A DNA stretch of 64,000 nt from a virus. Shown piece after piece: positions 3,598 to 53,530 of this stretch. The notes under the pieces are model-generated. The model was not told the origin of the DNA, did not search any database, and saw only the letters and a program-made list of their open reading frames with translations. The stretch covers positions 3,466 to 67,465 of IMG/VR virus record IMGVR_UViG_3300009509_000706; one strand, given 5' to 3'. How positions within the stretch are numbered: the stretch's first letter is position 1; every line of letters starts with the position of its first letter. A program made the translations under genes and the position numbers.

Positions 3598-4355
3598 AAG
3601 CAAAGCAACGAGGCCAGGGCCTAGTTGAATTTGCTCTTATATTGCCAGTGTTACTTGTTATGCTGGTGACGATATTTGAGGGCGCAAAATTGCTTGGCTC
3701 ACAGATGCGGGTTGACAATGAAGCGCGGGAGATAGCACGCCTTGCAGCTAGGGGCACTGTGCCAGAAGATATGATTACTTATTCTGGCGACATGTTGTTG
3801 GAAGGCTCTATGTTGCGCCTTTCATACGTGACAGTTAATTTAGAATCAACGGGCGAATTTTCAAGCAAGCTTGATGAGTATTTCCCCTTTGGTTTACTCA
3901 AAGCGCCAAGAATAGATAGCGTGCTATTCATTGCTGATCAAAAAGCAATGCTTAATACATTCGTCTCTATTGATTGGTCATCTGCTTTTACAGATACAGC
4001 CAATATTGAAAATTATGATATTGAGGTTAGTAGGGGCAATCAACATAATACATGGTTGACCGCCACGAAAGAAACAGCGGCATTATTTTTGGTAGAGTAT
4101 AATGACTTGAAATCTGAGATGCTTTCTGTGTTTGTCCAGGCAAATTATTTGGGTCATCCATCCTCGCGGGTATATCTTGGGCGTTATGAGGTCAATTTCA
4201 ACATGGAATTGATAAACCAGCCTTATAGAGTTATTGTGGTCGAGATAGAACAACCCTATACTTCTTTTACTGGGCTGCTTGACTTTATCATGCCCAAGAT
4301 GCTCTATAGTAAAGCTGAAATGAGAGTGCTGCCAATAAGGGGCCTGACAGAATGA
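3594..4355 (+). CDS. TadE-family pseudopilin-like protein
   Basis: N-terminus KQRG|QGLVEFALILPVLL with G-1, E+5 and a hydrophobic helix, then AREIARLAA. Confidence 0.8.
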   Translation: MKAKQRGQGLVEFALILPVLLVMLVTIFEGAKLLGSQMRVDNEAREIARLAARGTVPEDMITYSGDMLLEGSMLRLSYVTVNLESTGEFSSKLDEYFPFGLLKAPRIDSVLFIADQKAMLNTFVSIDWSSAFTDTANIENYDIEVSRGNQHNTWLTATKETAALFLVEYNDLKSEMLSVFVQANYLGHPSSRVYLGRYEVNFNMELINQPYRVIVVEIEQPYTSFTGLLDFIMPKMLYSKAEMRVLPIRGLTE

Positions 4356-5449
4356 GACAAGTTAAATTCCTTGATGTCACAGAACCAAAGGCTATGATAC
4401 AAGACGCGCTTGCGGCAATGTCTAAGGTTATCGAATCTGGGCAGTTCATTTCTGGAAAATATGTTGCCACTTTTGAGGAAAAATGGGCAGAAATATGTGG
4501 AGCACAATATTGTGTGGCCTGTGGGAGTGGCGGCGCAGCCTTAATATTGGCCCTCAAAGCACTTGATTTGCCCATCGGTTCGCGGGTCATAGTCCCCGCC
4601 TTATCTTTTGCTGCTACGGCTATGGCTGTACTAGAGGCGGGTTACATCCCGCGTTATTGTGACGTTGATTCAAATGGCCTGATCGATGTTCATAAAATGA
4701 CAGAGTTGGCCTTGCATGAAAGAGCCGTTGCAGTTATTCCCGTCCATCTCTATGGACAGTTAGTAAATATGAAACCTATTGTAGAGGTTGCTAAACAATT
4801 TGGGATGCAAGTTATTGAGGATGCTGCCCAGGCTCATTGTGCAATGAAAAGAGTACATGGTACAATGGCCTGCTTTTCATTTTATCCCGCGAAGAATCTT
4901 GGTGCTTTCGGTGAAGCTGGTGCAATCGTGACCGATCACAGTGATTTGGCATATAAAGCACGCCAAATTGCCAATTATGGCGTAGCCCCTGGCAGTAAGT
5001 ATGAGCACAAGATATTAGGTAGTAATTTAAGAATGGATGAAATTCAAGCCGCTATTTTATACGCCAAGATGGGCCATCTGGATTATTGCCTTGCCAAGAG
5101 GAAAGAAGTTGCTTTGCGCTATGCGGCAAACGGTGTCCATTCTATTGCCCGTGCCAAAACAAATGTATGGCATTTGTACCCTGTTAAGTGTGAACAGCCC
5201 GCCAAAGTCCGTGATGAATTAGGCAGCTGGGGCATAGCCACAGGCTTGCACTATCCGATTATTTTGCCGGAGCTTGAGGCTTTACGCGGCAACTTTGGCT
5301 CAAATAGGCATAACTATAAAGGCTCGTGGCCTATCGCAAAGGCAATAGCAGAGCATCATATTACTTTGCCGATGGGGCCACATTTGAGCAATGATGATAT
5401 TGATTATATATCGGAGGGGTTTTTAAATGCCTGTTCCAAGAATATTTAA
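4352..5449 (+). CDS. DegT/DnrJ/EryC1/StrS PLP aminotransferase (WbpE/WlbC-like)
   Basis: PVHLYGQ, IEDAAQAH, FSFYPAKNLGAFGEAG, GSNLRMDEIQAA. Confidence 0.95.
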   Translation: MRQVKFLDVTEPKAMIQDALAAMSKVIESGQFISGKYVATFEEKWAEICGAQYCVACGSGGAALILALKALDLPIGSRVIVPALSFAATAMAVLEAGYIPRYCDVDSNGLIDVHKMTELALHERAVAVIPVHLYGQLVNMKPIVEVAKQFGMQVIEDAAQAHCAMKRVHGTMACFSFYPAKNLGAFGEAGAIVTDHSDLAYKARQIANYGVAPGSKYEHKILGSNLRMDEIQAAILYAKMGHLDYCLAKRKEVALRYAANGVHSIARAKTNVWHLYPVKCEQPAKVRDELGSWGIATGLHYPIILPELEALRGNFGSNRHNYKGSWPIAKAIAEHHITLPMGPHLSNDDIDYISEGFLNACSKNI

Positions 5450-22025: not shown

Positions 22026-22403
22026 ATGGTTGACACGTTGCTAGACGCTGAACGCCTACGGGCACAGGTAGAAATTGAGATTACGAAGCAGGCACTAGAG
22101 CTTTTCAAAAGTCTGCGGCAAGAATACTCCGATATGAACGAGCGCCTACAAAGGCGCGTTGATGAGCTTGAAAAACAGCGAGCCGATAGTATCAAGCGCC
22201 TTGACGATCTCTCGATTTCATTAAAGGCCGCGCAGAAAAAAGAGAAAGATTATCAGAGCACAATCGCCAGGTTGACTAGAGAGGTAGAGGATTTGCGCCG
22301 AGAGATTATTTCATTGCGCAATGAAAATGTAGCCCTGAGCCGTTTGGTAGAGGAACTGCGCAACGAGATAGATGGTTTCCGGGCGGATATGCGCGGGGAT
22401 TGA
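22026..22403 (+). CDS. Coiled-coil protein in the lysis region
   Basis: Heptad pattern over about 100 aa. Confidence 0.55.
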   Translation: MVDTLLDAERLRAQVEIEITKQALELFKSLRQEYSDMNERLQRRVDELEKQRADSIKRLDDLSISLKAAQKKEKDYQSTIARLTREVEDLRREIISLRNENVALSRLVEELRNEIDGFRADMRGD

Positions 22404-22546
22404 AATTTAATGCAAGATATGATATAATGAGTATAGGTATTTCTCCAGGCGTTCTGTAAAGCAGACTTTGGCAATTGGTATATCTGCTGGGGATGCTTGG
22501 CAGGTTTCACAAAACTTATATTAAAAGAAAGGTAAAAGGTGTTAGA

Positions 22547-22816
22547 ATGGAATACATGATCGGTACAATAGCAGTAAGCGCCCTGATTTTCGCTATCGTC
22601 GAATTTGCCAAAGCGAAACTCGGAATCAAGGACGGGGCCGTCGTTACTCTCGTGGCTATTCTTGGCGTGCTATTCACGGGGGTTTCAATATCAATCACTC
22701 AGGGTTACATCCCGCCCGACGTTGCTATCTGGATCGCTGGTATTGTTGAGTTTTTGGCTTCTATCCTCGGAGCGATGGGATTCTATAGTTATTTGAAGCG
22801 AAAGAATATCTATTGA
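22547..22816 (+). CDS. Putative holin
   Basis: 89 aa, 2-3 TM helices, IVEFAK..G motif, basic C-terminus, end of late operon. Confidence 0.7.
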   Translation: MEYMIGTIAVSALIFAIVEFAKAKLGIKDGAVVTLVAILGVLFTGVSISITQGYIPPDVAIWIAGIVEFLASILGAMGFYSYLKRKNIY

Positions 22817-22841
22817 CGCCGCCGTGATTTCATGGTACAAT
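22813..22841 (+). promoter_or_regulatory. Sigma70-type promoter for sRNA-1
   Basis: TTGACG-17-TACAAT with extended TG; the -35 overlaps the holin stop codon. Confidence 0.75.
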
Positions 22842-22847
22842 ATAACT

Positions 22848-22959
22848 GGTAAGCATTTAGTCCGTTGCGTGGGGACAAGCCCCACGCTACAAGACGGGCG
22901 CTATTTCTCCTTTCGCAGACGGCCCTGGTAAAAGGTGACACCAGGGCCGTTCTGTTTTT
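22848..22959 (+). ncRNA. Candidate sRNA-1 (hairpin, anti-SD tract, terminator)
   Basis: Own promoter; GCGTGGGG/CCCCACGC hairpin; CTATTTCTCCTTTC tract; 12-bp terminator stem plus T run. Confidence 0.6.
22918..22959 (+). terminator. Intrinsic terminator
   Basis: GACGGCCCTGGT...ACCAGGGCCGTT followed by CTGTTTTT. Confidence 0.8.
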
Positions 22960-23061
22960 ATAGTGATTTCAGGGCCAATCTTGCCAAAGTCTGCATATTC
23001 TAACTTTTCGGTTAAGAAAGGTTAGAATTTTGTTTTATAAGGCAATATACTATAACTTCGC

Positions 23062-23090
23062 TTGACAATGCGGGGGCATTGTGGTATACT
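23062..23090 (+). promoter_or_regulatory. Sigma70-type promoter
   Basis: TTGACA-17-TATACT with TG extension. Confidence 0.8.
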
Positions 23091-23123
23091 GTAACTATGT
23101 TGGAATGAAGGGAGAAATAGACA

Positions 23124-23621
23124 ATGAAACGCTTGTTTGACCCAAATTGTCAAGAGGTTAATAACGCACCTGCAAAACTCCGAGACAGGGCTATAAAAGA
23201 GGGGTTGAAACTTCTACAGATTGTCTGGGATAAAGAAGGTGGATACCTAGAGCATACCTGGGGATTTGAGCAATGGTCAATACGTCCTTACCGTTTGGGC
23301 TATGGGTGCGATGGTACTACAGACGAAAATATACACCTCATAGCCTGGAAAATCTGCGAACAGATCGGGATAGATTATCTCGCCTTGTATCTTGAGGCAT
23401 ATAACGATGACCTGCTTAACTTTGACGAATGGGATACAATAGCTCAGGAAACAGATATGCCAAAGCTTGGCGCACAATCAGATTTGGTGCTGCGCGGGAT
23501 ATTACATGACCTTAACGAAATAAACTGTAGAACGGTTGGGGATTCATTGCAAGATGAATTAGAACGACTTGGCTATAATGTTGATCAATGGTGGAATTAT
23601 AGAGAGGAGAAACTAACATGA
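23124..23621 (+). CDS. Hypothetical protein
   Basis: Strong RBS GAAGGGAG and own promoter. Confidence 0.7.
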   Translation: MKRLFDPNCQEVNNAPAKLRDRAIKEGLKLLQIVWDKEGGYLEHTWGFEQWSIRPYRLGYGCDGTTDENIHLIAWKICEQIGIDYLALYLEAYNDDLLNFDEWDTIAQETDMPKLGAQSDLVLRGILHDLNEINCRTVGDSLQDELERLGYNVDQWWNYREEKLT

Positions 23622-23779
23622 TTGAATTGATAAGTTTTGAAATATGGTACGAAGATGGAAAACTTGTAATCTGCGAACGCTATACTGGTAAACGAATAGT
23701 CTTTGATACGCTTGCCGAAGTAATAGCCTTTATTGAGGCAGAATTGCACGAAGTTCTAGGGGAGGATGACGATGGCTAG
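23618..23779 (+). CDS. Small hypothetical protein (53 aa, not in the ORF track)
   Basis: GAGGAG RBS, ATGA overlap, MIELISFEIWYEDGKL... Confidence 0.55.
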   Translation: MIELISFEIWYEDGKLVICERYTGKRIVFDTLAEVIAFIEAELHEVLGEDDDG

Positions 23780-24406: not shown

Positions 24407-24518
24407 TTGACGGCAGACTGTTTTGCCTTTAAAATGGTAGTATGAACATCATAGTCATCATGATAGCATATCGGGGACGGGGCGGGCAAGGCGCGTAATA
24501 TGCGCCTGTCCGCCTTTT
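24407..24518 (+). promoter_or_regulatory. Promoter with attenuator-like leader
   Basis: TTGACG-17-TAAAAT; 18-codon uORF at 24442-24498; GC hairpin at 24481-24514 plus TTTT. Confidence 0.6.
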
Positions 24519-24542
24519 CATAATACACATAAGGCAAACATC

Positions 24543-25403: not shown

Positions 25404-25666
25404 GAATAACTGAGGCCGAAGTATTTGCCGAAATCGCAGCACTGTTATCGGCTGGCAAAGAGCGGGAACTTGGAACATTTACCACAGCAGAGCTTGCAGA
25501 ATATTTAGGCTGCTGTGCACCAACGGCACTGGTCAGAATCAAAAAACTTCTGGCCGCTGGAATAATTGAGAATGCACGTATACCTATTACCGATCTAGTA
25601 GGTAGGCAAACAACGACATTTGGATTCAAGTACATCGGCAAGTCAGAGCCGCCTATTGACGACTAG
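25385..25666 (+). CDS. Winged-helix DNA-binding protein
   Basis: FTTAELAEYLGC...IKKLLAAGII. Confidence 0.7.
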   Translation: MATKRMRITEAEVFAEIAALLSAGKERELGTFTTAELAEYLGCCAPTALVRIKKLLAAGIIENARIPITDLVGRQTTTFGFKYIGKSEPPIDD

Positions 25667-25684
25667 GCTATAATATGCTATAAT
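25656..25684 (+). promoter_or_regulatory. Sigma70-type promoter for sRNA-2
   Basis: TTGACG-17-TATAAT with TG; the -35 lies in the last codons of the upstream gene. Confidence 0.8.
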
Positions 25685-25689
25685 GAGAT

Positions 25690-25756
25690 CGTAGACCTTT
25701 CCCTCTCTTTCGCTTGGCGCTGGTAGCACTATCCCGCTACCAGCGCCTTTTGTTTT
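25690..25756 (+). ncRNA. Candidate sRNA-2 (anti-SD tract plus terminator)
   Basis: TTTCCCTCTCTT tract, then a perfect 12-bp stem GGCGCTGGTAGC/GCTACCAGCGCC and a T run. Confidence 0.6.
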
Positions 25757-25769
25757 GTGAAATTGGGGC

Positions 25770-25798
25770 TTGACAAATTCTGCATTTGGGTGTATAAT
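25770..25798 (+). promoter_or_regulatory. Consensus sigma70 promoter
   Basis: TTGACA-17-TATAAT; near copy of the minus-strand promoter at 44249-44277. Confidence 0.85.
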
Positions 25799-25833
25799 AG
25801 GTTATAATATATACAAGAGAGGGAAATAACAAA

Positions 25834-25977
25834 ATGAGTGACTTTGATGAATGGTTCGCACAAAAATACGAGGGTAAACTGGGGCCTCCGCCTATTGAAT
25901 TGTCATTTCGCGAAGTCGCAAAAATGCCTGGGATGCTGCTAGGCAATTATCTATTGGTAGGGGCATTAGCGAAATAA
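25834..25977 (+). CDS. Small hypothetical protein, possibly frameshifted
   Basis: RBS AAGAGAGGGAAA; MSDFDEWFAQKY... Confidence 0.5.
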   Translation: MSDFDEWFAQKYEGKLGPPPIELSFREVAKMPGMLLGNYLLVGALAK

Positions 25978-26433: not shown

Positions 26434-26676
26434 TGGCGTGGCTTGACAAAATCAAAGAGTATATTGCACATCTTGCAATCAAATCGTATTAGAGCTTGAT
26501 TGGGATGGTAGTTGTCCTAATTGTGACTGTGACAGCAATCTTGGGCCTCATTTGCCGACCATTGGGGAAATATTACAACAGGGCGAAGATGTTTTCTATC
26601 CCGACATGAATCTAGGGCCGTTCTTGAATACGCTATTTGGCACAATAACTGAGATTTTGAAAGGAGAAAAAGCATA

Positions 26677-26867: not shown

Positions 26868-27128
26868 ATGGCAAAGGTACAAATTAAGATCGCCCTAGCG
26901 ATTGATTCAGAAGGCAATTGGGGAGCCAGCGGTTGGGGCAATCTCAAGGAATGTGCTAAAGATGAGGCGATGGCCGTTGCGCTGGAATGTCTGGACGAAT
27001 GGCCGGATACCGACGCGCGTTACTGGATTATACTTGAAAAAGAAGTGCCAGAAATTGAGACAAAAACAATCGGCGCTGACCAGGTTGTTATTGAGGTAGA
27101 GCGCAGAGCTATAGAAGGGAGAAACTGA
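26868..27128 (+). CDS. Hypothetical protein
   Basis: GGAAAGGA RBS. Confidence 0.6.
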   Translation: MAKVQIKIALAIDSEGNWGASGWGNLKECAKDEAMAVALECLDEWPDTDARYWIILEKEVPEIETKTIGADQVVIEVERRAIEGRN

Positions 27129-31866: not shown

Positions 31867-31910
31867 TTCCATTTTGATTGGTTTAATTGTTGCTATAACA
31901 CATGAATCAT

Positions 31911-31991
31911 AAAATAGAAGCCCCCGGCGTAGGTGTCGGGGGGCTTCTTTGGCGCTCCATTGCGCCATGCGCCAGTGCTGACTGTGCACTG
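31911..31991 (-). ncRNA. Candidate sRNA-3 (three hairpins, one with an AAUGGA loop)
   Basis: Minus-strand promoter TTGACA-17-TACAAT at 32026-31998; two short hairpins, then a terminator at 31916-31948. Confidence 0.55.
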
Positions 31992-32022
31992 CCTGCCATT
32001 GTATCATGGCCGTGGCATAGTG

Positions 32023-32220
32023 TCAAGACGTTGTGATGTGGATTTCGGCATCGCTGCCGAAACTTGCACTGACTGTGGCCGCAAGGCCACTAGCCAAAAT
32101 GGCTTGATACCAAAATTCTGGATAGCCATCACAAGCAGCTTTGACTTTATCACAATTACTATCCCACTCTGCCCTTGTCTTACTTCCACGCATCAACTCA
32201 ACAACTTCTTGCTCTGTCAT
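32023..32220 (-). CDS. Hypothetical protein
   Basis: GAAAGGA RBS. Confidence 0.6.
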   Translation of the reverse strand: MTEQEVVELMRGSKTRAEWDSNCDKVKAACDGYPEFWYQAILASGLAATVSASFGSDAEIHITTS

Positions 32221-32260: not shown

Positions 32261-33178
32261 TTATGCCTCGGCGGCCAATTGTTCCGCCTGTTCGACCTCA
32301 GCTTCTGCCCTGTTGGCATATCCCTCAAGGTCAGCGATAACATCCGCCAGATTCGCATCGTTGATTTCGAGATAGCCCATCTTGCCAGCAGCGCCTAACA
32401 TGTGAAAGAAATCTGGCGATCCGTTTGCGGTCTGATAATACGGCTCTTTCTCTGATAGTTGTGTTGCAGCAGAAGTCCAGCCGCCGCCCTTGACAGGCGG
32501 ACGCTTGCCAGTCGGCCCGTCTTGTTTCCAGCCCGTTGTGGCATGTTGTGCGGGCGCCGGCGCTTTTCTGGCAGGGTGGGCAGGCGCGTCTTTGCGGGGC
32601 ATAGGCTCGCGCTGTTCCGGCTCTGACATGGCAGGCCCAGATAATACTGCCCCCTCAATAATCTCGCCATCGGCGTCTACTTCTACGCCAAGCTCTTCTG
32701 GCGTATAGACTGGCCCGCCGAAGATGTCTGGGCAATACCATTTTGCCCCGTTGCTCAAGGCGCGAGCAAGATACATATTTGCTGGATGTTTTTTCCAATT
32801 ATCCTTACCGAGCAATCCAGCGCGGGCAGCATCCTCTTTGTCGAACTTTGAGATACCCAAACTCTGGCTATTCTCGAAAAACTCGATTTCGCAACTATCG
32901 TTACTATGACTCTTGATTCTATAGTCATACTTCCCACTGCGTTTGATAGCAGCGCCCATGAGAATGGCAGACAATGTGACCCGACCATTGACGATATAAA
33001 TATTCGTCATAGATGCAATTGGGCCAAAGCCCAATTCACGCCCAGCTAAAACTTTTGTAACCGCCTGGGCTGCTTGTCGGCTATCCTGGAAAAATCCAGA
33101 CTGCGCCAATACCTCACCGAGCCGGATTGTTTCTGCCAGGCTCATATCTTGCTGAAATGGAATGATTGCCTTGCTCAT
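32261..33178 (-). CDS. RecT/Red-beta-like single-strand annealing protein
   Basis: GRELGFGPIASMTNIYIVNGR and WKKHPANM..ARA...CPD. Confidence 0.8.
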   Translation of the reverse strand: MSKAIIPFQQDMSLAETIRLGEVLAQSGFFQDSRQAAQAVTKVLAGRELGFGPIASMTNIYIVNGRVTLSAILMGAAIKRSGKYDYRIKSHSNDSCEIEFFENSQSLGISKFDKEDAARAGLLGKDNWKKHPANMYLARALSNGAKWYCPDIFGGPVYTPEELGVEVDADGEIIEGAVLSGPAMSEPEQREPMPRKDAPAHPARKAPAPAQHATTGWKQDGPTGKRPPVKGGGWTSAATQLSEKEPYYQTANGSPDFFHMLGAAGKMGYLEINDANLADVIADLEGYANRAEAEVEQAEQLAAEA

Positions 33179-33218
33179 TATATTTCTCCCTTCATTGTTT
33201 TGTTAAACGCATGTTCAT

Positions 33219-38888: not shown

Positions 38889-38936
38889 TTATAACCTTTC
38901 CTAAAACAAAATCACCTGCTCTGTTCGCATCTTGAA

Positions 38937-39464
38937 TCAATAGTTACTATTACTAATTCCATATTCATAACCGCATACTACGCAGAGCCATTCTTCGTCC
39001 CAACTCATCGGCATACCGCCAAATTCCATTGCCGCGCCAGGGTTATAATGGGCTTCTCCAATTGATAAGATAGCATGTTTGTCAGAATCACAGCGCGGGC
39101 ATTGATAGGGCCATTGCCAGAATTTTTCATGCCCGCACTCCACGCAGGAAAAGAATCTGTCTGGTAATTTGTCGGCTGACAGTGGCTCATTGCAATATGT
39201 ACGCCCAGGAGCATTCATGGTCAAGCTATCACAGCCGCTACACCAAGAATATTTGCCCAGTGCTTTGCCAAGTTGCTCTTCTTTGAGTTCCCCAATACCT
39301 TCAATTTCTACGTCAAGGCGAGTATTGCATTTGGGACACTGAATCGGCGTAGCTTCTATGCCATAATCAGGCCATGTATATCCGCAGGCTGCACACTCAT
39401 AATCAGAGCCGTGACCTATATCCAGTTCACTATATTGTGTGGAAGCATTGACAATCCTAAACAT
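38937..39464 (-). CDS. Multi-Zn-ribbon protein
   Basis: At least six CxxC motifs. Confidence 0.65.
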   Translation of the reverse strand: MFRIVNASTQYSELDIGHGSDYECAACGYTWPDYGIEATPIQCPKCNTRLDVEIEGIGELKEEQLGKALGKYSWCSGCDSLTMNAPGRTYCNEPLSADKLPDRFFSCVECGHEKFWQWPYQCPRCDSDKHAILSIGEAHYNPGAAMEFGGMPMSWDEEWLCVVCGYEYGISNSNY

Positions 39465-39508
39465 CGCCTTATCCTTTCCTAAAACAAAAAGTCCTTCTGT
39501 TCTATCAC

Positions 39509-39850
39509 CTAAGACGATCTTGCCTTGTCAACGATAGATATGACGCGCGGGTCTGCCGTATCAACAAGGTCTGGCATATATCCAGCAGCGATGAGCCGCC
39601 AGCATGGCCCACTCTGATTCTCTGGTTTCTGATAACAGTCAACCCAGTCGTCTGTCGTTTCTTTTATAACGTCAATGATCCAGATGTCCCCTTGACGCAG
39701 TGAGTTCCATTCTTGTACTGCTTCTTCAACAGTTGGGCCACTTTGATAATGCTCACAGTTTCCGCACCAGACTTTGTAACCGAGGGCATACTTGAATATC
39801 TCAAGGCTCATATTGTCACAAAAAATACAAGGGCTAAGAATTTCGCTCAT
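39509..39850 (-). CDS. Lar-like (restriction alleviation family) Zn-ribbon protein
   Basis: LSPCIFC...VWCGNC...EEAVQEWN. Confidence 0.6.
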   Translation of the reverse strand: MSEILSPCIFCDNMSLEIFKYALGYKVWCGNCEHYQSGPTVEEAVQEWNSLRQGDIWIIDVIKETTDDWVDCYQKPENQSGPCWRLIAAGYMPDLVDTADPRVISIVDKARSS

Positions 39851-39867
39851 CGCCTTATCCTTTTCTA

Positions 39868-40066
39868 AAACAAAATCACCCGCTTTGATCGCAGTTCCCC
39901 CAAACCATAAGGACTTTTGAGGGTAGCGACTCCCCCTTCTACTAAGGGGAACCGCGACCAAAACAGGTGATTCATTTTGCGCCTTATGGTATTTACAGCT
40001 TCCATTGTCAGGTCGCCATCCCGACTGCTGTAAGTTCATTTTATCACGTTTCGCCAGAATTGTCAA
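39868..40066 (-). ncRNA. C4/CI-like antisense switch B (promoter, target boxes, long stem)
   Basis: TTGACA-17-TAAAAT; about 27-bp stem 39874-39900/39946-39972; leader boxes complementary to stem-enclosed sequences. Confidence 0.65.
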
Positions 40067-40226
40067 GTAAGTATTTCTTTGAGAGCAATTTTCCATTGAG
40101 CTTGACAATGATTTCTGATATTGAGCAATCTTCTGGCGTTTCATCTGGTGCTGCTGCCCATGAACCTTCGAGCCAGTATAATAGGTCAATGGCTTGCTTG
40201 TTAGTAAGATAGATTGTTATGCCCAT
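40044..40226 (-). CDS. Hypothetical protein flanked by direct repeats
   Basis: GAGGTG RBS; TCGCCAGAATTGTCAAG at both ends. Confidence 0.55.
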   Translation of the reverse strand: MGITIYLTNKQAIDLLYWLEGSWAAAPDETPEDCSISEIIVKLNGKLLSKKYLLDNSGET

Positions 40227-40248
40227 TTGCCACACCTCGCCAGAATTG

Positions 40249-41193
40249 TCAAGCAACTGCCCTCGCCACTTTCATAAAGCCCCAAAAGTCATCAACCGAG
40301 CCGCCATACCTATAAAAAAATTCGTCGGCCTTGACCGGCAGATTGACGACGCGCCCGCGTCCATCAAATAGTTTTGCCAGTCGAAAAGCCGACTCTATAG
40401 CATCTGGGTCGAGGGCTACGTAAACGACCTTTGTGGCCTTGAACTCATTTAGCCAGCTTCTCTTGAAAGAACGCTGACTCATGATTCCACAGTTTGGGAT
40501 TCCATGTTGTGCCAAGACAATGCTCTTTTTCTCGCCCTCTACTACCACGGGATCAGGCCATTCGTTAATCAAATCGAGATTGAATAGTGCAACTGACAAG
40601 CCTGCCATGTGGGGCCGATATTTGTCTCCCCCATTAGCGCCCTTGATTCTGTGTCGGATATTGAGCAATTGACCGCCGTTTACTACGGGAATAGTATAGC
40701 TTGCTCTCCCATCATAGTCTGTTGGGCAGCGCGGGCAGTAGCCGAGATTGTAGCGGGCAATACTGCCGTCGTCAATGCCCTCGTTGTGCCACCATTCCCG
40801 CGCTTCTGGCATTCTATCTAGCAGGCGATTATAAGCAATGTGATCCTGGCAACGAGCCATCCGCTCAAGCGCATCGAGCCGTCGTTCGTGTTCTCGTTGC
40901 TTGCGCTCTAGCGCCTTGACTCTGGCCTCAAGCCTTACCTGTTGCAATTTTTCTGGTGACAGGCCAGCATCAGGCCAAAGGTCTTTTGGCTCAAGTCCCA
41001 ACGCAGCCACGATAGCGTCAAAGTCGCAACCTGAGAAGCAATGGAGTAGCACCTGGCCTTGATCGCCGATGCCAATGGATAGAGATGGGTTATGATCGTC
41101 GTGTGCTGGGCAGCGGGCAAGCCACTTGTCTAGGCCATGTGATTTGACTGCTTCGAGTAACGATAGGACAAGTTCAAGAGACTGCATAGTCAT
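40249..41193 (-). CDS. DNA primase (CHC2 Zn finger plus TOPRIM)
   Basis: CPAHDDHNPSL..HCFSGC, VVVEGEKK, ALDPD. Confidence 0.85.
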   Translation of the reverse strand: MTMQSLELVLSLLEAVKSHGLDKWLARCPAHDDHNPSLSIGIGDQGQVLLHCFSGCDFDAIVAALGLEPKDLWPDAGLSPEKLQQVRLEARVKALERKQREHERRLDALERMARCQDHIAYNRLLDRMPEAREWWHNEGIDDGSIARYNLGYCPRCPTDYDGRASYTIPVVNGGQLLNIRHRIKGANGGDKYRPHMAGLSVALFNLDLINEWPDPVVVEGEKKSIVLAQHGIPNCGIMSQRSFKRSWLNEFKATKVVYVALDPDAIESAFRLAKLFDGRGRVVNLPVKADEFFYRYGGSVDDFWGFMKVARAVA

Positions 41194-41311
41194 GTATGCC
41201 CTCGCAATTGGCGCACTGATAAACTTCGTGCCTTGCGCCATTTTCTGCTATGTATTCATACAAAAACGATAGAAATGTATAGGCCTCACAGTGTGTACAG
41301 TAAGAGTGCAT
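41174..41311 (-). CDS. Small Zn-ribbon protein
   Basis: CTHC...CANC; GAGGAG RBS. Confidence 0.5.
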   Translation of the reverse strand: MHSYCTHCEAYTFLSFLYEYIAENGARHEVYQCANCEGIHDYAVS

Positions 41312-41321
41312 TGTTTGCTCC

Positions 41322-41624
41322 TCAAAACAAAAGCTCTTGCATTTTGTCACCATCGGCAAAGCCCGCGCCATGAATAGGGCAGTCGGGATTTGAAATCGGG
41401 TCAGGATTGCAATTGAGAAAATCTGCGCAAATGCAGCGAGCCTCTGTCATCCCTTTTTTGTTATGAAATAATGTCGGCATGGCTTCTGATTGCCAGTACC
41501 AATCTATGAGAGTCACCCAATCGCACTCAGTACAATAATAGAACGTGATAAGCAACACCCTATTATTTACTGTAGCCTCAGTTACGGTTTTTTCGGCGTC
41601 TGCGCCACATTCTTGGCAATACAT
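41322..41624 (-). CDS. Cys-rich hypothetical protein
   Basis: CQEC, CTEC, CIC...CPIHG. Confidence 0.6.
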   Translation of the reverse strand: MYCQECGADAEKTVTEATVNNRVLLITFYYCTECDWVTLIDWYWQSEAMPTLFHNKKGMTEARCICADFLNCNPDPISNPDCPIHGAGFADGDKMQELLF

Positions 41625-41640
41625 CGTCTTATCCTTTCCT

Positions 41641-41837
41641 AAACAAAAGCCCTAATGTGCTATCACCTGAGCGGTATCGGCGGCAAAGGTTTTTTGTGCT
41701 ATACGTGACGCTCCGTATAGCCCGTTACCGCCCATGTGATAGTCCACAAGGGCTTTTCCTTACCTTTGCCTAACTGTTAAAATAGGGGCGTCACTCCCTA
41801 CTAACTCCATTCTACCACGTTTCGCCAGAATTGTCAA
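41641..41837 (-). ncRNA. C4/CI-like antisense switch A
   Basis: TTGACA-17-TAGAAT; long stem 41645-41757; boxes GUGACGC and GGCAAAGGU complementary to enclosed sequences. Confidence 0.7.
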
Positions 41838-44076
41838 GCGGAATACTGTCATTTGCAGACTGCGCTTCCGCCCAGGCAAACAAATCGAGGGAATTTACAT
41901 CGCGCTCGACCATTTGCAGATTCTTGACGGCTACGTTGAAATAACTTTGCTTCAATTCTATGCCGATCCCCTTGCGTCCCATCTTGACGGCCTGGTAAAT
42001 CTCTGAGCCAATCCCGGCGAAGGGCGAAAGGATCGTTTCGCCAGGATTGCTCCAAAGCGCGATACAGCGTTCAATTGTACCAAGTTGCAGGGGGCAGATA
42101 TGCTTGTCATCATCCTCGGCGCGGGCAGTCGTATATTGTAGGGTATCAGTTTCTCTGATTCCCCACCAAATCGGATGCGCCCATTCGATCCATTGATCCC
42201 GTGTTAACTCTCCGTTGGCTACGGGATTGATCGGCGTTTGATTCTCGCCAGGTTTTTTGAAAATCAGGATATAATCGCCAATCGCTGGCCTTGACCACGA
42301 GCTGTCTTTTTCCATTTGGACAAAAAGAAGCGCCTTGCTATGCGTGCGAATGGCCTGTGCTTGCGGATTCTTATCTATCGTGACTCTGCCGTGATAAATC
42401 CATCCGCGATCCTCAAAGGCAGCGATGACTTTGCCAGGGAAATCTTTAAGGCCAATATAGCCATCCTTGCTGAGCAGAGCAGGTACATCAGCAGTATGGA
42501 CGGCGCAGATACGTCCAGGTCGCGTTACCCGCAGTAAATGATCAATGATATAGCCAAAGTGGATAAAGAAATCATCCGCATTGGCAGAATTACCCAAGTC
42601 ACGCTCCGTAGGACTATATGTATACAAATCCATAAAAGGCGGACTGAATACGCTAAAATCAATGCTGTCAGTCTTGATTTCTGCCAGACGCTCTACAGAA
42701 TCACCCAGCATCAAAGTCCAATCCTTGCCCTTGATGGTATCAACGTTATATGTTTCCCCACCATCATTTTGTTCCGCCAGCTCATCTCTTTCAAAAGCCT
42801 GTACATTTTCGATGAGTTTAGTTGCCATAGTATTTGCCTGCTCCTCTTTTCTCATAATATTAGTGTAAATCTCTTGTTCTACATCTCCGAGTACAATGTG
42901 AACATTGACCTCTTCTTTTTGCCCGAACCTGTAACAACGACGGATGGCCTGATAGTATGCTTCCCAGCTATCACTCAAGCCGACGAATATCATATTGTGG
43001 CAATTCTGGAAATTCATACCGAAGCCAGCGATCTTCGTTTTAGTAACCAAGACTCTTATAGTGCCATTCTGGAAGTTTTCTAACGCCTCAATCTTCGCAT
43101 CAAGGCTATCACTGCCTTGTACCTCTACAGCATCATGTATGGCTTTAGCCAGCGCCGCACTTTCATCATTCAGACCGCACCAAACGATCCATTGTTCGCT
43201 AGAATTATTGACGATTTCAGCAGCAGCAGAGACTCTATCTCCTATGGTTTCGCGTCTTATTTGTCGCCTATGCCCTATGCCCTTGAGACCAGTAAAAAAC
43301 AACTGGTCTTCTGGGACATAATCTGTGGGGACGAATAGTGAAAAGATATTTAGTGGGGGAAGTACGAATCCGTCATCGTCATAGCCGAGATCGGACGGCT
43401 TGCGTACTGACATGCCCCAACTGGCGAGCCAACGGTAAAATGCTTCTTCAGCATGGCCGCGCAATCGCCAGCCTTTGTCATCATGTACGAAAAAGGCGGC
43501 AAGCATATCGGCTCTGGTCATCACGCCTAGAAATTCGGCATGGTTGGCAATCTCTGCAATGTCATTCGGGGCTGGCGTTGCTGTACAACAGAGTCTTAGT
43601 TGCACATCAGAAAACATATCCGTTAGCTTGCGCCGCGTCTTGCCGTCAAGCCCTTTCAAAATCGAGCTTTCATCTAATATTACCGCGCCGAAGGCGGCAG
43701 GATTAAATCGCTCGATCATTTCATAATTGGTTATATAGATTTGCGATGGGCTATTATCCGCCTGTTCCTGGCTGCGTACATAATAGACTTGCAGATCAAT
43801 TTTCTGCGCCTCTCTTACCGTTTGTTTGGCTACTGACAAGGGGGCAATAATCAATGTTCTTTTGCCAGATAACCTGGCCCATTCCAGTTGCATGAATGTC
43901 TTCCCCAGGCCAGTATCAGCAAATATCGCCGCCCGCCCCTTGCGCAGCGCCCAGATAGTCAAATCCTTTTGGAAGTCAAAAAGTAGCCTGTGTACTTCAG
44001 ATTGTGGCGCAGAAATGCCGCACGTTTTTGCTTTGATACATTTTGTTTTCAAGAAGGCTTGATAATTCATGCTCAT
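41812..44076 (-). CDS. SNF2-like helicase fused to an N4/N6 DNA methyltransferase
   Basis: DTGLGKT, LDESS, TATPAPN, QAIRRCYRFG; VFSPPF and LSPFAGIGS. Confidence 0.9.
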   Translation of the reverse strand: MSMNYQAFLKTKCIKAKTCGISAPQSEVHRLLFDFQKDLTIWALRKGRAAIFADTGLGKTFMQLEWARLSGKRTLIIAPLSVAKQTVREAQKIDLQVYYVRSQEQADNSPSQIYITNYEMIERFNPAAFGAVILDESSILKGLDGKTRRKLTDMFSDVQLRLCCTATPAPNDIAEIANHAEFLGVMTRADMLAAFFVHDDKGWRLRGHAEEAFYRWLASWGMSVRKPSDLGYDDDGFVLPPLNIFSLFVPTDYVPEDQLFFTGLKGIGHRRQIRRETIGDRVSAAAEIVNNSSEQWIVWCGLNDESAALAKAIHDAVEVQGSDSLDAKIEALENFQNGTIRVLVTKTKIAGFGMNFQNCHNMIFVGLSDSWEAYYQAIRRCYRFGQKEEVNVHIVLGDVEQEIYTNIMRKEEQANTMATKLIENVQAFERDELAEQNDGGETYNVDTIKGKDWTLMLGDSVERLAEIKTDSIDFSVFSPPFMDLYTYSPTERDLGNSANADDFFIHFGYIIDHLLRVTRPGRICAVHTADVPALLSKDGYIGLKDFPGKVIAAFEDRGWIYHGRVTIDKNPQAQAIRTHSKALLFVQMEKDSSWSRPAIGDYILIFKKPGENQTPINPVANGELTRDQWIEWAHPIWWGIRETDTLQYTTARAEDDDKHICPLQLGTIERCIALWSNPGETILSPFAGIGSEIYQAVKMGRKGIGIELKQSYFNVAVKNLQMVERDVNSLDLFAWAEAQSANDSIPLDNSGETW

Positions 44077-44104
44077 TTCTCCATTCTTATATTACTCTAG
44101 TTGT

Positions 44105-44277
44105 AAAATAAAAGGCCCTGATCCCCATGCCCGTTGCCCGCTTTGTTGTTAAAATCCACTCTCGCTGCCAGGCAAGAATGCGGCAAAACGGGCCGGGGGA
44201 TCAAGGCCCTCGGCTAAAACCTATATTCATTCTTGCCTGGCATTCTCTATTATACACCCAAACACAAAATCTGTCAA
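44105..44277 (-). ncRNA. Antisense/attenuator switch C upstream of the helicase-MTase
   Basis: TTGACA-17-TATAAT; 15-nt leader box exactly complementary to a sequence inside the long stem 44113-44210, which ends in a U run. Confidence 0.65.
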
Positions 44278-48651: not shown

Positions 48652-48918
48652 TTATATCCCGCTTGGTTGCGCCGTTGTATCTTGATGGTCGCGCCAGTCG
48701 GCGGCTTCTTGCTCGGCTTCTTCAATCGTCGGCCACTTTGGGCCTGATGTGCAATGGCAACGGCGCTCCTCAAACTCACCACACCAACTCATACTTGGGC
48801 TTGTAACTTGGGGCCATTCCCACCTCAATTCATCAGAATATGGGCGCGGGGCATACCGCCTGCACTCTCCAAGCCCCTCGTGTAATTCATTGTAGAATCT
48901 GCAATTTTGACATTTCAT
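48652..48918 (-). CDS. Cys-rich phage protein (CxxC...CRR.AP...WP...WCGEF)
   Basis: Characteristic motif; GAGAGGG RBS. Confidence 0.6.
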   Translation of the reverse strand: MKCQNCRFYNELHEGLGECRRYAPRPYSDELRWEWPQVTSPSMSWCGEFEERRCHCTSGPKWPTIEEAEQEAADWRDHQDTTAQPSGI

Positions 48919-49194
48919 CTTTGCTTTCCCTCTCTATATTGCCGCCCCGCCGTCAAGCCATACACCCTCTAGTCTGGCCCTCCCCGCTCGATAGAATCTA
49001 GTGATGTTCCTTTGCAGGTAAACCTCGCCCGTCACGAACGGGGCAGCAATCTATTTTTTATCCACAAACCTGCTTTGTAAACCAGGCGTCAAAGCCATCG
49101 GCGTTTCCAAAGCTGGCTATCCACTTCGTGCGATATTCATTGTATCGTTCCATGAGTTCCCTGAAAAGTTTGGTATCTATCGTATTCGTCTTTG

Positions 49195-53200: not shown

Positions 53201-53530
53201 ATGCAGCAAGATTTAGTAGTTTGTAGTTCAAGAAGGGAGAAAAACAAAAGAATGAAGTTGCTTGAGAGAGAGTCTGGTTATTATGAAGTTGATCCGGCAC
53301 GGATTTTTACTAGCCAAGTAGCACTAAGCAAATCAGAGATTGAGAGGTTCCCGCAGTCTATAGTGTACGCGCGCCAGACCGCATTATGGCAAGCATCTAG
53401 GTATCTAAAACAAAGTAGTGACGTATATGATCCGCTTGGAATAGAAGAACTGTTAATACATGATATTTTGTATCTCAGGCATTACTATGCCATGCGGGGT
53501 TATTATCACTTTGTAGAAAGTAAGATATGA
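53201..53530 (+). CDS. Hypothetical protein
   Basis: Coupled ORF. Confidence 0.5.
   Translation: MQQDLVVCSSRREKNKRMKLLERESGYYEVDPARIFTSQVALSKSEIERFPQSIVYARQTALWQASRYLKQSSDVYDPLGIEELLIHDILYLRHYYAMRGYYHFVESKI

Follow-up and report, generated by a model that had tools for sequence, protein, structure and literature searches.

The locus lies in an uncultured sediment phage, of which we analyzed one stretch of 64,000 nt (the window) from a 67-kb record. A holin-like ORF is the final gene ahead of a predicted non-coding unit, RNA A, and downstream lies a gene of 165 amino acids, called gene 23124 after the position of its ATG. Searches of Pfam and PHROG with the holin-like protein (22547-22816) returned no family, and the label "holin" is putative. 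The parts of this unit are as follows.

22547-22816, + strand: holin-like membrane-protein ORF, 89 aa (ORF list)
22813-22841, + strand: promoter of RNA A, TTGACG, 17 nt, TG-n-TACAAT (10/12, extended -10)
22848-22959, + strand: predicted small RNA A, ~112 nt (fold prediction)
22901-22914, + strand: seed of RNA A, CTATTTCTCCTTTC (accessible tract CUAUUUCUCCUUUC), antisense of the ribosome-binding site (RBS) tag GAARGGAGAAA
23062-23090, + strand: own promoter of gene 23124, TTGACA, 17 nt, TG-n-TATACT (11/12, with TG)
23107-23120, + strand: RBS of gene 23124, GAAGGGAGAAATAG, the cognate target of seed A, ranking first of 91 start regions
23124-23621, + strand: target gene, 165 aa, beginning at ATG 23124 (ORF)

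A preliminary description of this DNA had placed a promoter at the stop of the holin-like ORF, driving an RNA of about 110 nt that ends in a terminator, and our predictions agree. The stop codon overlaps the -35 hexamer of the promoter at 22813-22841, and the segment 22848-22960 folds with a minimum free energy (MFE) of -53.4 kcal/mol, compared to -33.6 +/- 3.3 for shuffled sequences (z -6.08; none of 200 shuffles was as good). The RNA, whose 5' end was placed by reference to the -10 hexamer, is laid out as a hairpin (22860-22899), an unpaired seed (22900-22914) and a second hairpin (22915-22955) with a U run; since that hairpin is followed by UUUU, it resembles an intrinsic terminator. The seed is unpaired in both the MFE and the centroid structures, at an opening cost of 1.78 kcal/mol. 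A transcript of the holin-like ORF would continue into RNA A and stop at the same terminator. Searches for known RNAs gave no Rfam family for RNA A at the gathering score across the whole window, nothing related at E <= 5 in 22380-23200, and neither a tRNA nor a tmRNA, and the ORF list holds no plausible ORF within the unit. A small peptide encoded in RNA A, which would be without a Shine-Dalgarno sequence, was ruled out. An antiterminator formed by GUCCGUU and the 5' arm of terminator A was also discarded, as it would have only five pairs, by eye, against seven in the predicted fold. On the minus strand, a match to the L31-Coriobacteria leader scored 26.4 bits, below the threshold of 33, and amounts to "hairpin plus AAGGAG"; it was rejected because no usable start codon lies within 20 nt and this half of the window carries no minus-strand genes. 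Between RNA A and gene 23124 there is a possible further small RNA, RNA B (22971-23038, + strand; z -3.21), with a weaker promoter-like site at 22935-22964 and a terminator-like hairpin at 22997-23028 plus a U run. Its 5' stretch 22981-22994 is the perfect complement of the holin leader at 22461-22474, these two being the only exact copies.

The unpaired tract 22901-22914 had been described as able to form 14 bp, one of them G:U, with the RBS of the next gene, and that gene as having a promoter of its own; both descriptions are borne out. The two 14-nt segments are 93% complementary, with 13 Watson-Crick pairs and U22911:G23110 (pairs counted by eye). The promoter of gene 23124 also holds, by eye, a palindrome in its spacer (ACAATGC-GGGG-GCATTGT). 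The duplex between the upstream sequence and the RBS of gene 23124 has an energy of -21.2 kcal/mol, compared to -13.8 +/- 2.0 when the upstream sequence is shuffled (0/100 as good), and among 127 called genes only this one stands out, with its 14-bp run; the second longest run is 10, and the control maximum also 10. Genome-wide, 14-mers complementary to some RBS region occur in ~13 windows at 11 places, compared to 7.6 +/- 3.3 in shuffled sequence. Such complementarity is thus not rare in itself, and it is the place and context of 22901-22914 that are special. The 165-aa protein matches no Pfam or PHROG family; it has 18 homologues besides itself, and its structure model (pLDDT 93) has no match to a PDB fold at E <= 0.001.

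A second unit of the same design, unit C, is found at 25656-25836. It is unrelated to unit A, and its parts follow in the order promoter, RNA, terminator, promoter, RBS.

25656-25684, + strand: promoter of RNA C, TTGACG, 17 nt, TG-n-TATAAT (11/12, with TG)
25691-25757, + strand: predicted small RNA C, ~67 nt (z -5.61, 0/200 shuffles as good)
25770-25798, + strand: own promoter of gene 25834, TTGACA, 17 nt, TATAAT (12/12)
25815-25826, + strand: RBS of the 47-aa ORF 25834-25977, AAGAGAGGGAAA, perfect complement of 25698-25709

RNA C consists of an unpaired 5' part with its seed at 25696-25711 and a terminator hairpin at 25716-25747 (12 pairs, nine of them G-C) followed by UUUUGUUUUG. Over 12 nt, its 5' tract is perfectly complementary to the RBS of its own downstream gene, 25834. 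When 364 candidate starts were compared, the longest upstream complementarities belonged to exactly genes 23124 (14) and 25834 (12). The two seed/RBS pairs are cognate and not interchangeable: the duplex of seed A with gene 23124 has -21.2 kcal/mol versus -13.6 with gene 25834, and that of seed C has -19.1 kcal/mol with gene 25834 versus -13.0 with gene 23124. The proteins of these two target genes gave no family match. Promoters of this quality number ten in the window, compared to 1.2 +/- 1.1 in 50 shuffles, and nine of the ten are labelled intergenic; judged by sequence, promoters of this class are probably real. Promoters, terminators, folds and complementarities in both units, with their statistics, are direct results of the computation.

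The RBS sequences of both adjacent genes recur elsewhere in the window. Tag A, the 11-mer GAARGGAGAAA, has six copies against 0.03 expected, and tag C, the 11-mer AGAGAGGGAAA, has three against 0.01. Each tag has a single antisense copy, located in its seed, and in both cases that copy lies unpaired within a promoter-terminator unit, less than 250 nt upstream of a sense copy. The tagged starts away from the units are these.

33181-33196, - strand: RBS before RecT-like gene 32261-33178, with a 16-nt identity to 23104-23119
26659-26669, + strand: tag A copy GAAAGGAGAAA before ATG 26677 of a 56-aa hydrophobic ORF (exact 11-mer)
27114-27124, + strand: tag A copy before ATG 27131 of a ParM/actin-like partition gene (phrog_691, E 4.8e-52; ALP_N)
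53232-53242, + strand: tag A copy before the in-frame ATG 53252 of ORF 53201-53530 (from the tag count)
48925-48936, - strand: RBS of the 88-aa gene 48652-48918, tag AGAGAGGGAAA(G) as at gene 25834 (shared 11-mer)

Two of these had been noticed before, the RBS sequence ahead of the RecT-like gene and the 11-nt match preceding ATG 26677, and both are exact. ATGAAGGGAGAAATA is found at 23105-23119 (+) and 33181-33195 (-), the latter ahead of gene 32261-33178, which matches PHROG RecT-like families (phrog_561, E 1.1e-24) and no Pfam family. Both tags are common to an adjacent gene and a distant gene on the opposite strand (the RecT-like gene for tag A, gene 48918 for tag C), and masking in cis cannot reach such genes. 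In five Chloroflexota genomes (36.6 Mb), which are a guess at the host lineage from the best matches of the 165-aa and ParM-like proteins and may not be the host's, tag A occurs 51 times versus 36 for its reversed control, or ~1.4 per Mb, and tag C 12 times versus 20. Both tags are rare in these genomes and on this comparison appear private to the phage.

The arrangement of the units could also be read as masking in cis alone, the tract hiding the next RBS in transcripts that come from upstream, with the short RNAs as by-products; translatable transcripts would then be only those from the promoter between tract and RBS. This logic is documented for the T4 genes e, soc, 49 and I-TevI, in which, according to the passages of PMC3014915 on these genes, the Shine-Dalgarno sequence or start codon is paired to an arm further upstream, and messages started at a promoter in between can be translated. 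Tract, promoter and RBS follow each other in this order in both of our units, and MFE and centroid structures of predicted read-through transcripts both contain the tract-RBS helix (22848-23160, z -7.98; 25691-25860, z -3.91). Unlike the T4 arms, however, the arm here is 105-192 nt from the RBS and has a promoter of its own, and a promoter of the top class directly upstream of each tract would have no purpose if masking were only in cis. Strong terminators also lie between tract and RBS (one in unit C, two in unit A), so that little read-through is expected. The recurrence of the tags on distant genes is likewise unlike the T4 cases; the copies on opposite-strand genes are beyond cis reach, and the starts of the RecT-like gene and gene 48918 are absent from those of the 364 candidates that have at least ten upstream pairs. 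We consider it unlikely that the units work in cis only. The earlier proposal of a trans-acting repressor of several genes gains from the predicted unit, its accessible seed, the excess of tags and the existence of unit C, but has to share the ground with cis masking in read-through transcripts, which folding also predicts.

Energy-based ranking of targets is less clean. When 91 start regions were ranked for seed A with correction for accessibility, gene 23124 was first, the RecT-like gene third, gene 26677 fifth and the ParM-like gene sixth, and to this extent the proposed targets stand out. The top target lies just 2.5 sd from the mean, however, and when the seed is shuffled with its CUCC core kept fixed, 32% of the shuffled seeds have a best target in the phage that is as good. 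Among 500 such shuffles, 1.2% reach the observed energy on the adjacent RBS and 0.8% reach the observed seven start regions with at least 11 contiguous pairs. For seed C, ranking 92 start regions by duplex energy places gene 48918 second and the cognate gene 25834 eighth. The rankings are not decisive, and this leaves some room for a reading in which the RNAs, or only the terminators, are real and the pairing is not regulatory: the tags would be efficient RBSs or sites of a RegA-type repressor, and the pyrimidine tracts would serve protein binding or spacing before a terminator. An exact 17-mer spanning seed A occurs in two viral contigs only, which are unrelated, and there it lies, like its 14-nt core, opposite an ordinary RBS on the other strand; phages are also known to use protein repressors against many start regions, one example being T4 RegA (PMC3014915). 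It is hard to reconcile with this reading that two different 11-mers, of which 0.03 and 0.01 copies in total are expected, each have an exact antisense copy, that these copies fall in the unpaired part of promoter-terminator units just upstream of a sense copy, and that the seed/RBS pairs are cognate. We judge a non-regulatory pairing improbable.

The pairing segments are also inverted repeats in the DNA, of 14 and 12 bp, flanking the promoters at 23062 and 25770, and the tag copies at 23104-23119 and 33181-33196 are inverted relative to each other. They could serve an invertible promoter switch as its recombination sites, or act as operators in DNA looping. Yet neither the resolvase/invertase family (PF00239) nor the tyrosine recombinase family (PF00589) was found in the 67-kb record, and contigs of four sequencing runs, which can miss rare forms, contained no strand-changing joints. 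The repeats are also at a fixed RBS distance from start codons, which indicates a role in RNA, and an element acting at the DNA level is in our estimate highly improbable.

Relatives of the locus are scarce. The phage collection held no DNA match to the stretch, tblastn with a 720-aa tail protein found no match, and the viral contigs contained no relatives of the holin-like, 165-aa or 720-aa proteins or of the 165-aa family alignment, nor did a scan of them for the hairpin-1 pattern find anything. Around homologues of the 165-aa gene we collected 57 metagenome and 24 genome loci. Sequence search (blastn, nhmmer) of 83 loci found no homologue of RNA A, and a covariance-model search of the window and 81 loci found only RNA A itself. 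One locus (L004) shares just 28 nt with unit A, at the promoter -10 region, and four (L006, L008, L010 and L014) have a short local CU-rich stretch near the RBS. Complementarity between upstream sequence and RBS is unremarkable in 18 of 20 homologue loci of the 165-aa gene, the other two being weak cases. The ParM-like query led to one locus, L085, from an Anaerolineales genome, with synteny limited to parM and the next gene. None of the 20 sequencing runs listed is an RNA run; the contigs compared are from DNA runs or runs of unrecorded kind, which in some cases leave parts of the stretch without cover. One contig from run X2, belonging to a relative, aligns with 22889-22957. At its loose 5' end it carries a variant hairpin 1: the two changes on the 3' arm of the inner stem convert G-C to G:U, and T22866>C converts a U:G to C-G, so that the stem changes keep pairing in this one, partial variant. 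The contig departs from the window within the terminator U run, where RNA A is predicted to end. From this match, the relative in run X2 appears to keep the RNA A module.

On balance we lean toward the view that this phage has at least two small RNAs, independent of each other, that repress tagged genes through seed-tag pairing. RNA A (~22848-22959) and RNA C (~25691-25757) would each be transcribed from its own sigma-70-type extended -10 promoter to an intrinsic terminator, exposing a pyrimidine-rich seed antisense to an extended, phage-private RBS tag. The tag A set would comprise gene 23124, the RecT-like and ParM-like genes, ORF 26677 and probably the ORF at 53252, and the tag C set gene 25834 and the minus-strand gene at 48918. 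The duplex would cover the Shine-Dalgarno sequence and the spacer, and so would keep the 30S subunit off and lower translation of the tagged genes. The sequence of RNA A would also be the 3' untranslated end of the holin/late transcript, so late messages would carry seed A, and in any transcript reading through the terminator this pairing would hide the adjacent RBS in cis. Production of the RNAs, action in trans and a repressive effect are inferences that the sequence features make moderately probable.

By prediction, both units carry hallmarks of trans-acting small RNAs in general: a promoter and a Rho-independent terminator around a non-coding unit, and an accessible seed. They are probably RBS-masking RNAs of the kind exemplified by c4 of P1. 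In the sections of PMC12197685 that treat it, c4 of P1/P7 (immI operon) stops translation of the downstream message by pairing at its RBS region. Here, similarly, a phage small RNA lies upstream of its target in the same orientation and pairs with the downstream RBS region in the computed duplexes (14 bp, -21.2 kcal/mol in unit A; 12 bp, -19.1 kcal/mol in unit C). P1 is a plasmid prophage, and this phage resembles it in having ParM-like and possibly ParR-like partition genes. The c4 RNA, from the work of Citron and Schuster in 1992, is reportedly a processed RNA of 77 bases, whereas RNAs A and C have their own predicted promoter and terminator, and their targets separate promoters. The target of c4 is an antirepressor module (icd/ant); the targets here match no family in Pfam or PHROG, and the 165-aa model is without a PDB fold match. 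RNA A also matches no Rfam family in sequence or structure. The complementary sequences of c4 are placed in RNA loops, as the same sections of PMC12197685 describe. RNAs A and C instead have one linear seed, and additional distant targets.

Other precedents share single aspects of this design. The same source (PMC12197685), where it touches on sar of P22 and OOP of lambda, presents them as short phage transcripts whose base pairing reduces expression of a phage regulatory gene. RNAs A and C are likewise proposed as short phage RNAs that lower phage gene expression through base pairing. However, sar and OOP are true antisense RNAs, from the opposite strand of their target, whereas RNA and target here are non-overlapping and have 12-14 nt in common. 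Among cellular RNAs, RsaE/RoxS of Firmicutes and the CcsR "cuckoo" RNAs of Alphaproteobacteria cover the Shine-Dalgarno sequences of several messages with C- or CU-rich seeds; RNAs A and C have a similarly exposed pyrimidine seed complementary to multiple Shine-Dalgarno regions, but their seeds run past the core into a phage-private tag, with no Rfam match. In the logic of controlling a gene set, the closest match by analogy is T4 RegA, a protein that recognizes loosely defined A+U-rich sites; PMC3014915 describes it as a competitor of ribosomes for the start regions in a group of early and middle messages. The factor here, in contrast, would be an RNA rather than a protein, and its sites are exact 11-mer tags. 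The PAK_P3 small RNAs were dropped as a precedent for RBS targeting, the targets described in the literature covered being others.

RBS masking by base-pairing RNAs is well established, and in the phage textbook cases, c4, sar and OOP, each RNA controls a single regulatory gene. A genome with two non-homologous small RNAs, each having a private tag on adjacent and distant genes, would suggest something broader. In the portions of the literature covered, supplements aside (including PMC12197685, PMC4933390 and PMC10914365), no such phage tag regulons were found described. We put forward only tentatively, and with considerable doubt, the full picture of at least two orthogonal regulons of small RNA and private RBS tag, built on tags that the likely host lineage hardly uses, in which selected sets of genes from both strands, with roles in replication, recombination and partition or of unknown function, would each be shut off by their own RNA, one of these riding on the 3' end of the late/lysis transcript. 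If true, this would be an RNA counterpart of T4 RegA, a programmable way to stop translation of specific gene sets, or would serve a plasmid prophage as a layer of immunity. The units also offer ready-made orthogonal pairs of RNA and RBS, directly testable with reporters. To our knowledge, there is almost no molecular biology for phages of Anaerolineae-like Chloroflexota. If real, these units would give a first glimpse of regulation in such phages, and a cheap, orthogonal way for a phage to time or silence gene sets at translation.

The RNA A unit, whose coordinates and sequences in the preliminary description all proved correct on re-check, follows a holin-like ORF (22547-22816) and comprises these features:

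22813-22841 (+): promoter of RNA A (TTGACG, 17 nt, TG-n-TACAAT), overlapping the stop of the holin-like ORF
22860-22899 (+): hairpin, followed by an unpaired CUAUUUCUCCUUUC-bearing stretch, a G+C-rich hairpin and a U run (predicted fold of RNA A)
22997-23028 (+): second terminator-like hairpin, between RNA A and the RBS of gene 23124
23062-23090 (+): gene 23124's own promoter; the RBS of this gene is the partner of the RNA A tract
22935-23038 (+): possible third small RNA (fold z -3.21), made up of a promoter-like site, 22935-22964, and the hairpin at 22997-23028 with its U run

Strong promoters (at least 10/12 plus TG) number ten in the window, compared to 1.2 +/- 1.1 in 50 shuffles, and 9/10 are intergenic; the RNA A promoter is therefore probably real. 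RNA A itself (~22848 to 22959) folds at -53.4 kcal/mol versus -33.6 +/- 3.3 for shuffles (z -6.08, 0/200 as good), matches no Rfam family, and is neither a tRNA nor a tmRNA. Between its tract and 23107-23120, 14 bp can form, one of them G:U.

Contigs of four sequencing runs were compared with 22300-23700. One contig, from run X2, matches 22889-22957 and leaves the window sequence within the terminator U run, where the 3' end of RNA A is predicted. At its loose 5' side this contig carries a hairpin 1 variant: the loop is different, both substitutions in the inner stem's 3' arm convert G-C to G:U, and T22866>C converts U:G to C-G. Variant contigs from X3 and X11 (22745-22857) have an altered promoter spacer, with none of the listed differences in the -35 or -10 hexamer. 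These points are drawn from the differences listed, beyond which there are 29 more, and are suggestive only.

Genome-wide, the 14-bp match is no more than chance: 14-mers with at most one G:U that are complementary to any of 91 start regions occur at ~11 places versus 7.6 +/- 3.3 in block shuffles (antisense copies of repeated leaders left out), and two viral contigs unrelated to this phage have the reverse complement of a 17-mer across seed A as an ordinary RBS. Locally, it is more than chance. The upstream region binds the adjacent RBS at -21.2 kcal/mol (shuffled upstream -13.8 +/- 2.0, 0/100 as good), and the 14-bp run is the sole value above 10 among 127 called genes, a level that the downstream control never exceeds. 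When the seed was shuffled with its CUCC core fixed (500 trials), 1.2% of seeds paired with the adjacent RBS at an energy as good as that of the real seed, and 0.8% equaled the observed seven start regions with at least 11 contiguous pairs. However, 32% of the shuffled seeds find as good a best target somewhere in the phage. When accessibility enters the ranking of the 91 start regions, gene 23124 takes rank 1 at -13.7 kcal/mol (all regions: mean 0.2, sd 5.6), and ranks 3, 5 and 6 go to the RecT-like gene, ORF 26677 and the ParM-like gene.

Inspection of the sequence that follows the remaining strong promoters revealed a second unit, at 25656-25836, that repeats this design:

25656-25684 (+): promoter of RNA C (TTGACG, 17 nt, TG-n-TATAAT; 11/12)
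~25691-25757 (+): RNA C, ~67 nt, the first 25 nt unpaired and bearing CCUUUCCCUCUCUUUC
within RNA C (+): terminator, a 12-bp hairpin with UUUUGUUUUG (fold z -5.61, 0/200)
25770-25798 (+): promoter of gene 25834, perfect, 12 bases past the RNA C terminator
downstream of 25770-25798 (+): RBS of the 47-aa ORF 25834, AAGAGAGGGAAA

Positions 25698-25709 are the perfect complement of the gene 25834 RBS. Among 364 candidate starts, each compared with the 28-350 nt upstream, the two longest complementarities belong to genes 23124 (14) and 25834 (12); the downstream control reaches 12 once and 11 once, so the 12-nt match of RNA C counts only with its context. Each seed prefers its own RBS over the other's by 6-8 kcal/mol, and RNA A and RNA C are not alike in sequence (an RNA A model matches only itself in the window). 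The second unit is therefore a replicate of the design in which seed and RBS have both changed, each in step with the other.

Each seed is antisense to an 11-mer that is over-represented in the window. Tag A, GAARGGAGAAA, occurs six times in the window versus 0.03 expected (0/100 shuffles): four copies precede starts 23124, 26677, 27131 and 33178, a fifth lies ahead of the in-frame ATG 53252, and the sixth is the antisense copy in the RNA A seed. Tag C, AGAGAGGGAAA, occurs three times versus 0.01 expected, ahead of 25834, ahead of the minus-strand start 48918, and antisense in the RNA C seed. Both tags are common to an adjacent gene and a distant gene on the opposite strand, and over 16 nt the 23124 RBS is identical to that of the RecT-like gene.

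The source record is 67,465 bp with direct terminal repeats, of which the window covers bases 3466-67465; the DNA runs holding the stretch are sediment metagenomes, and no close relative was found in the phage collection or viral contigs. The best homologues of the 165-aa target protein (23124-23621) are from Chloroflexota (Promineifilaceae, Ardenticatenaceae, 'Aquidulcis'), and the ParM-like protein is 62% identical to a homologue in an Anaerolineales genome, so a host from the Chloroflexota is probable but not certain. Five Chloroflexota genomes (36.6 Mb) hold 51 copies of tag A and 12 of tag C (reversed controls 36 and 20), or ~1.4 and 0.3 per Mb, whereas the phage has roughly 78 and 31 per Mb in sense orientation. 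The tags are thus private to the phage, to the extent that the guessed host lineage is right. The 165-aa protein represents an unnamed family with an invariant G-C-D-G-T, whose members occur in MAGs of Chloroflexota, Proteobacteria and other groups; its model is confident (pLDDT 93) and has no PDB fold match at E <= 0.001.

Several other elements were seen near these genes. A perfect palindrome, ACAATGC-GGGG-GCATTGT (23065-23082), covers the -35 hexamer and spacer of the gene 23124 promoter and may be an operator; the gene itself contains a related copy in inverted orientation, at 23141-23154. The -10 region TGTGGTATACTGT of promoter 23062 is shared with the L004 contig and with a strong promoter (4451-4479) in L085, an Anaerolineales contig with a ParM-like homologue, where it lies ~540 nt downstream of a tRNA-like 3' part (3850-3915). 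In four loci (L006, L008, L010, L014) a conserved block ~40 nt upstream of the 165-aa homologue has a CU-rich CTCTTTCCT-like stretch a few bases before an AAGGAG RBS; the block can make a short local hairpin, so that relatives of the target gene may mask their RBSs locally. The 11-mer GGTAAAAGGTG from the RBS region of the holin-like gene (22531-22541) recurs in the RNA A terminator loop (22927-22937), which by a rough estimate could be chance. The holin-like transcript (promoter 22400-22428) is predicted to bear UAUUUCUCC near its 5' end, at 22439-22447; these are nine letters of the RNA A seed, so tag A could be a partner for this message as well (predicted duplexes with the RBSs of 23124 and 33178, -12 to -14 kcal/mol). 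Its leader (22461-22474) is also perfectly complementary over 14 nt to 22981-22994, between the two terminators and on the 5' side of the possible third small RNA; these are the sole two exact copies in the window.

Elsewhere, on the minus strand at 31900-32026, a strong promoter (32026-31998, 11/12 with TG) is followed by ~90 nt with several hairpins, the last with a U run (by eye), and there is a further strong terminator at 31863-31826. The stretch may encode one more small RNA, though one that lacks a pyrimidine seed. Minus-strand 38890-41840 holds a repeated regulatory cassette: near-identical promoters at 41837 and 40066 lead into long leaders ending in a U run that abuts a repeated RBS block, TTTTGTTT(T)AG(G/A)AAAGGATAAG(A/G)CGATG, which precedes starts 39464, 39850 and 41624. 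Promoter, structured leader, terminator-like hairpin with U run, and RBS also succeed one another at 44090-44277 (-), ahead of the SNF2 helicase-methylase gene, and at 24407-24542 (+), ahead of gene 24543, which suggests attenuation or antitermination control.

We lean slightly toward both units yielding small RNAs that act in trans, given the first-class promoter directly upstream and the terminator directly downstream of each tract, and the recurrence of the tags on distant genes. Where a message is tagged, such RNAs would cover its Shine-Dalgarno sequence and spacer and so reduce its translation, and this masking by both RNAs is the best-supported reading. The trans-acting repressor of several genes put forward in the preliminary description is favored by unit layout and distant tags, but the same tract-RBS pairing is also predicted in cis for any read-through transcript, a logic found in T4 gene e (PMC3014915); the two modes may coexist. 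The c4 RNA of P1 and P7 (PMC12197685) is the closest known system in logic, although the RNAs here fall outside it on both homology and biogenesis. T4 gene e-type hairpins have the same order of parts, and T4 RegA the same gene-set logic, but RegA is a protein. In the portion of the literature that our search covered, no phage was reported to match small RNAs to private RBS tags.

Read from ORF maps and family matches, structural genes run rightward up to ~22,800. The rightward set from 23,124 includes ParM-like and possibly ParR-like partition genes, and a leftward set from ~49,500 to 31,100 encodes primase, DnaB-like helicase, SNF2 helicase-methylase and the RecT-like protein; a family search found no integrase or invertase in the record. 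Because RNA A follows the holin-like gene with no terminator between them, late transcripts would carry seed A as well, which suggests that tagged non-structural genes may be shut off late in infection. Since partition genes are present and an integrase is lacking, it is equally possible that masking would serve as a second lock on the tagged genes in a plasmid prophage.
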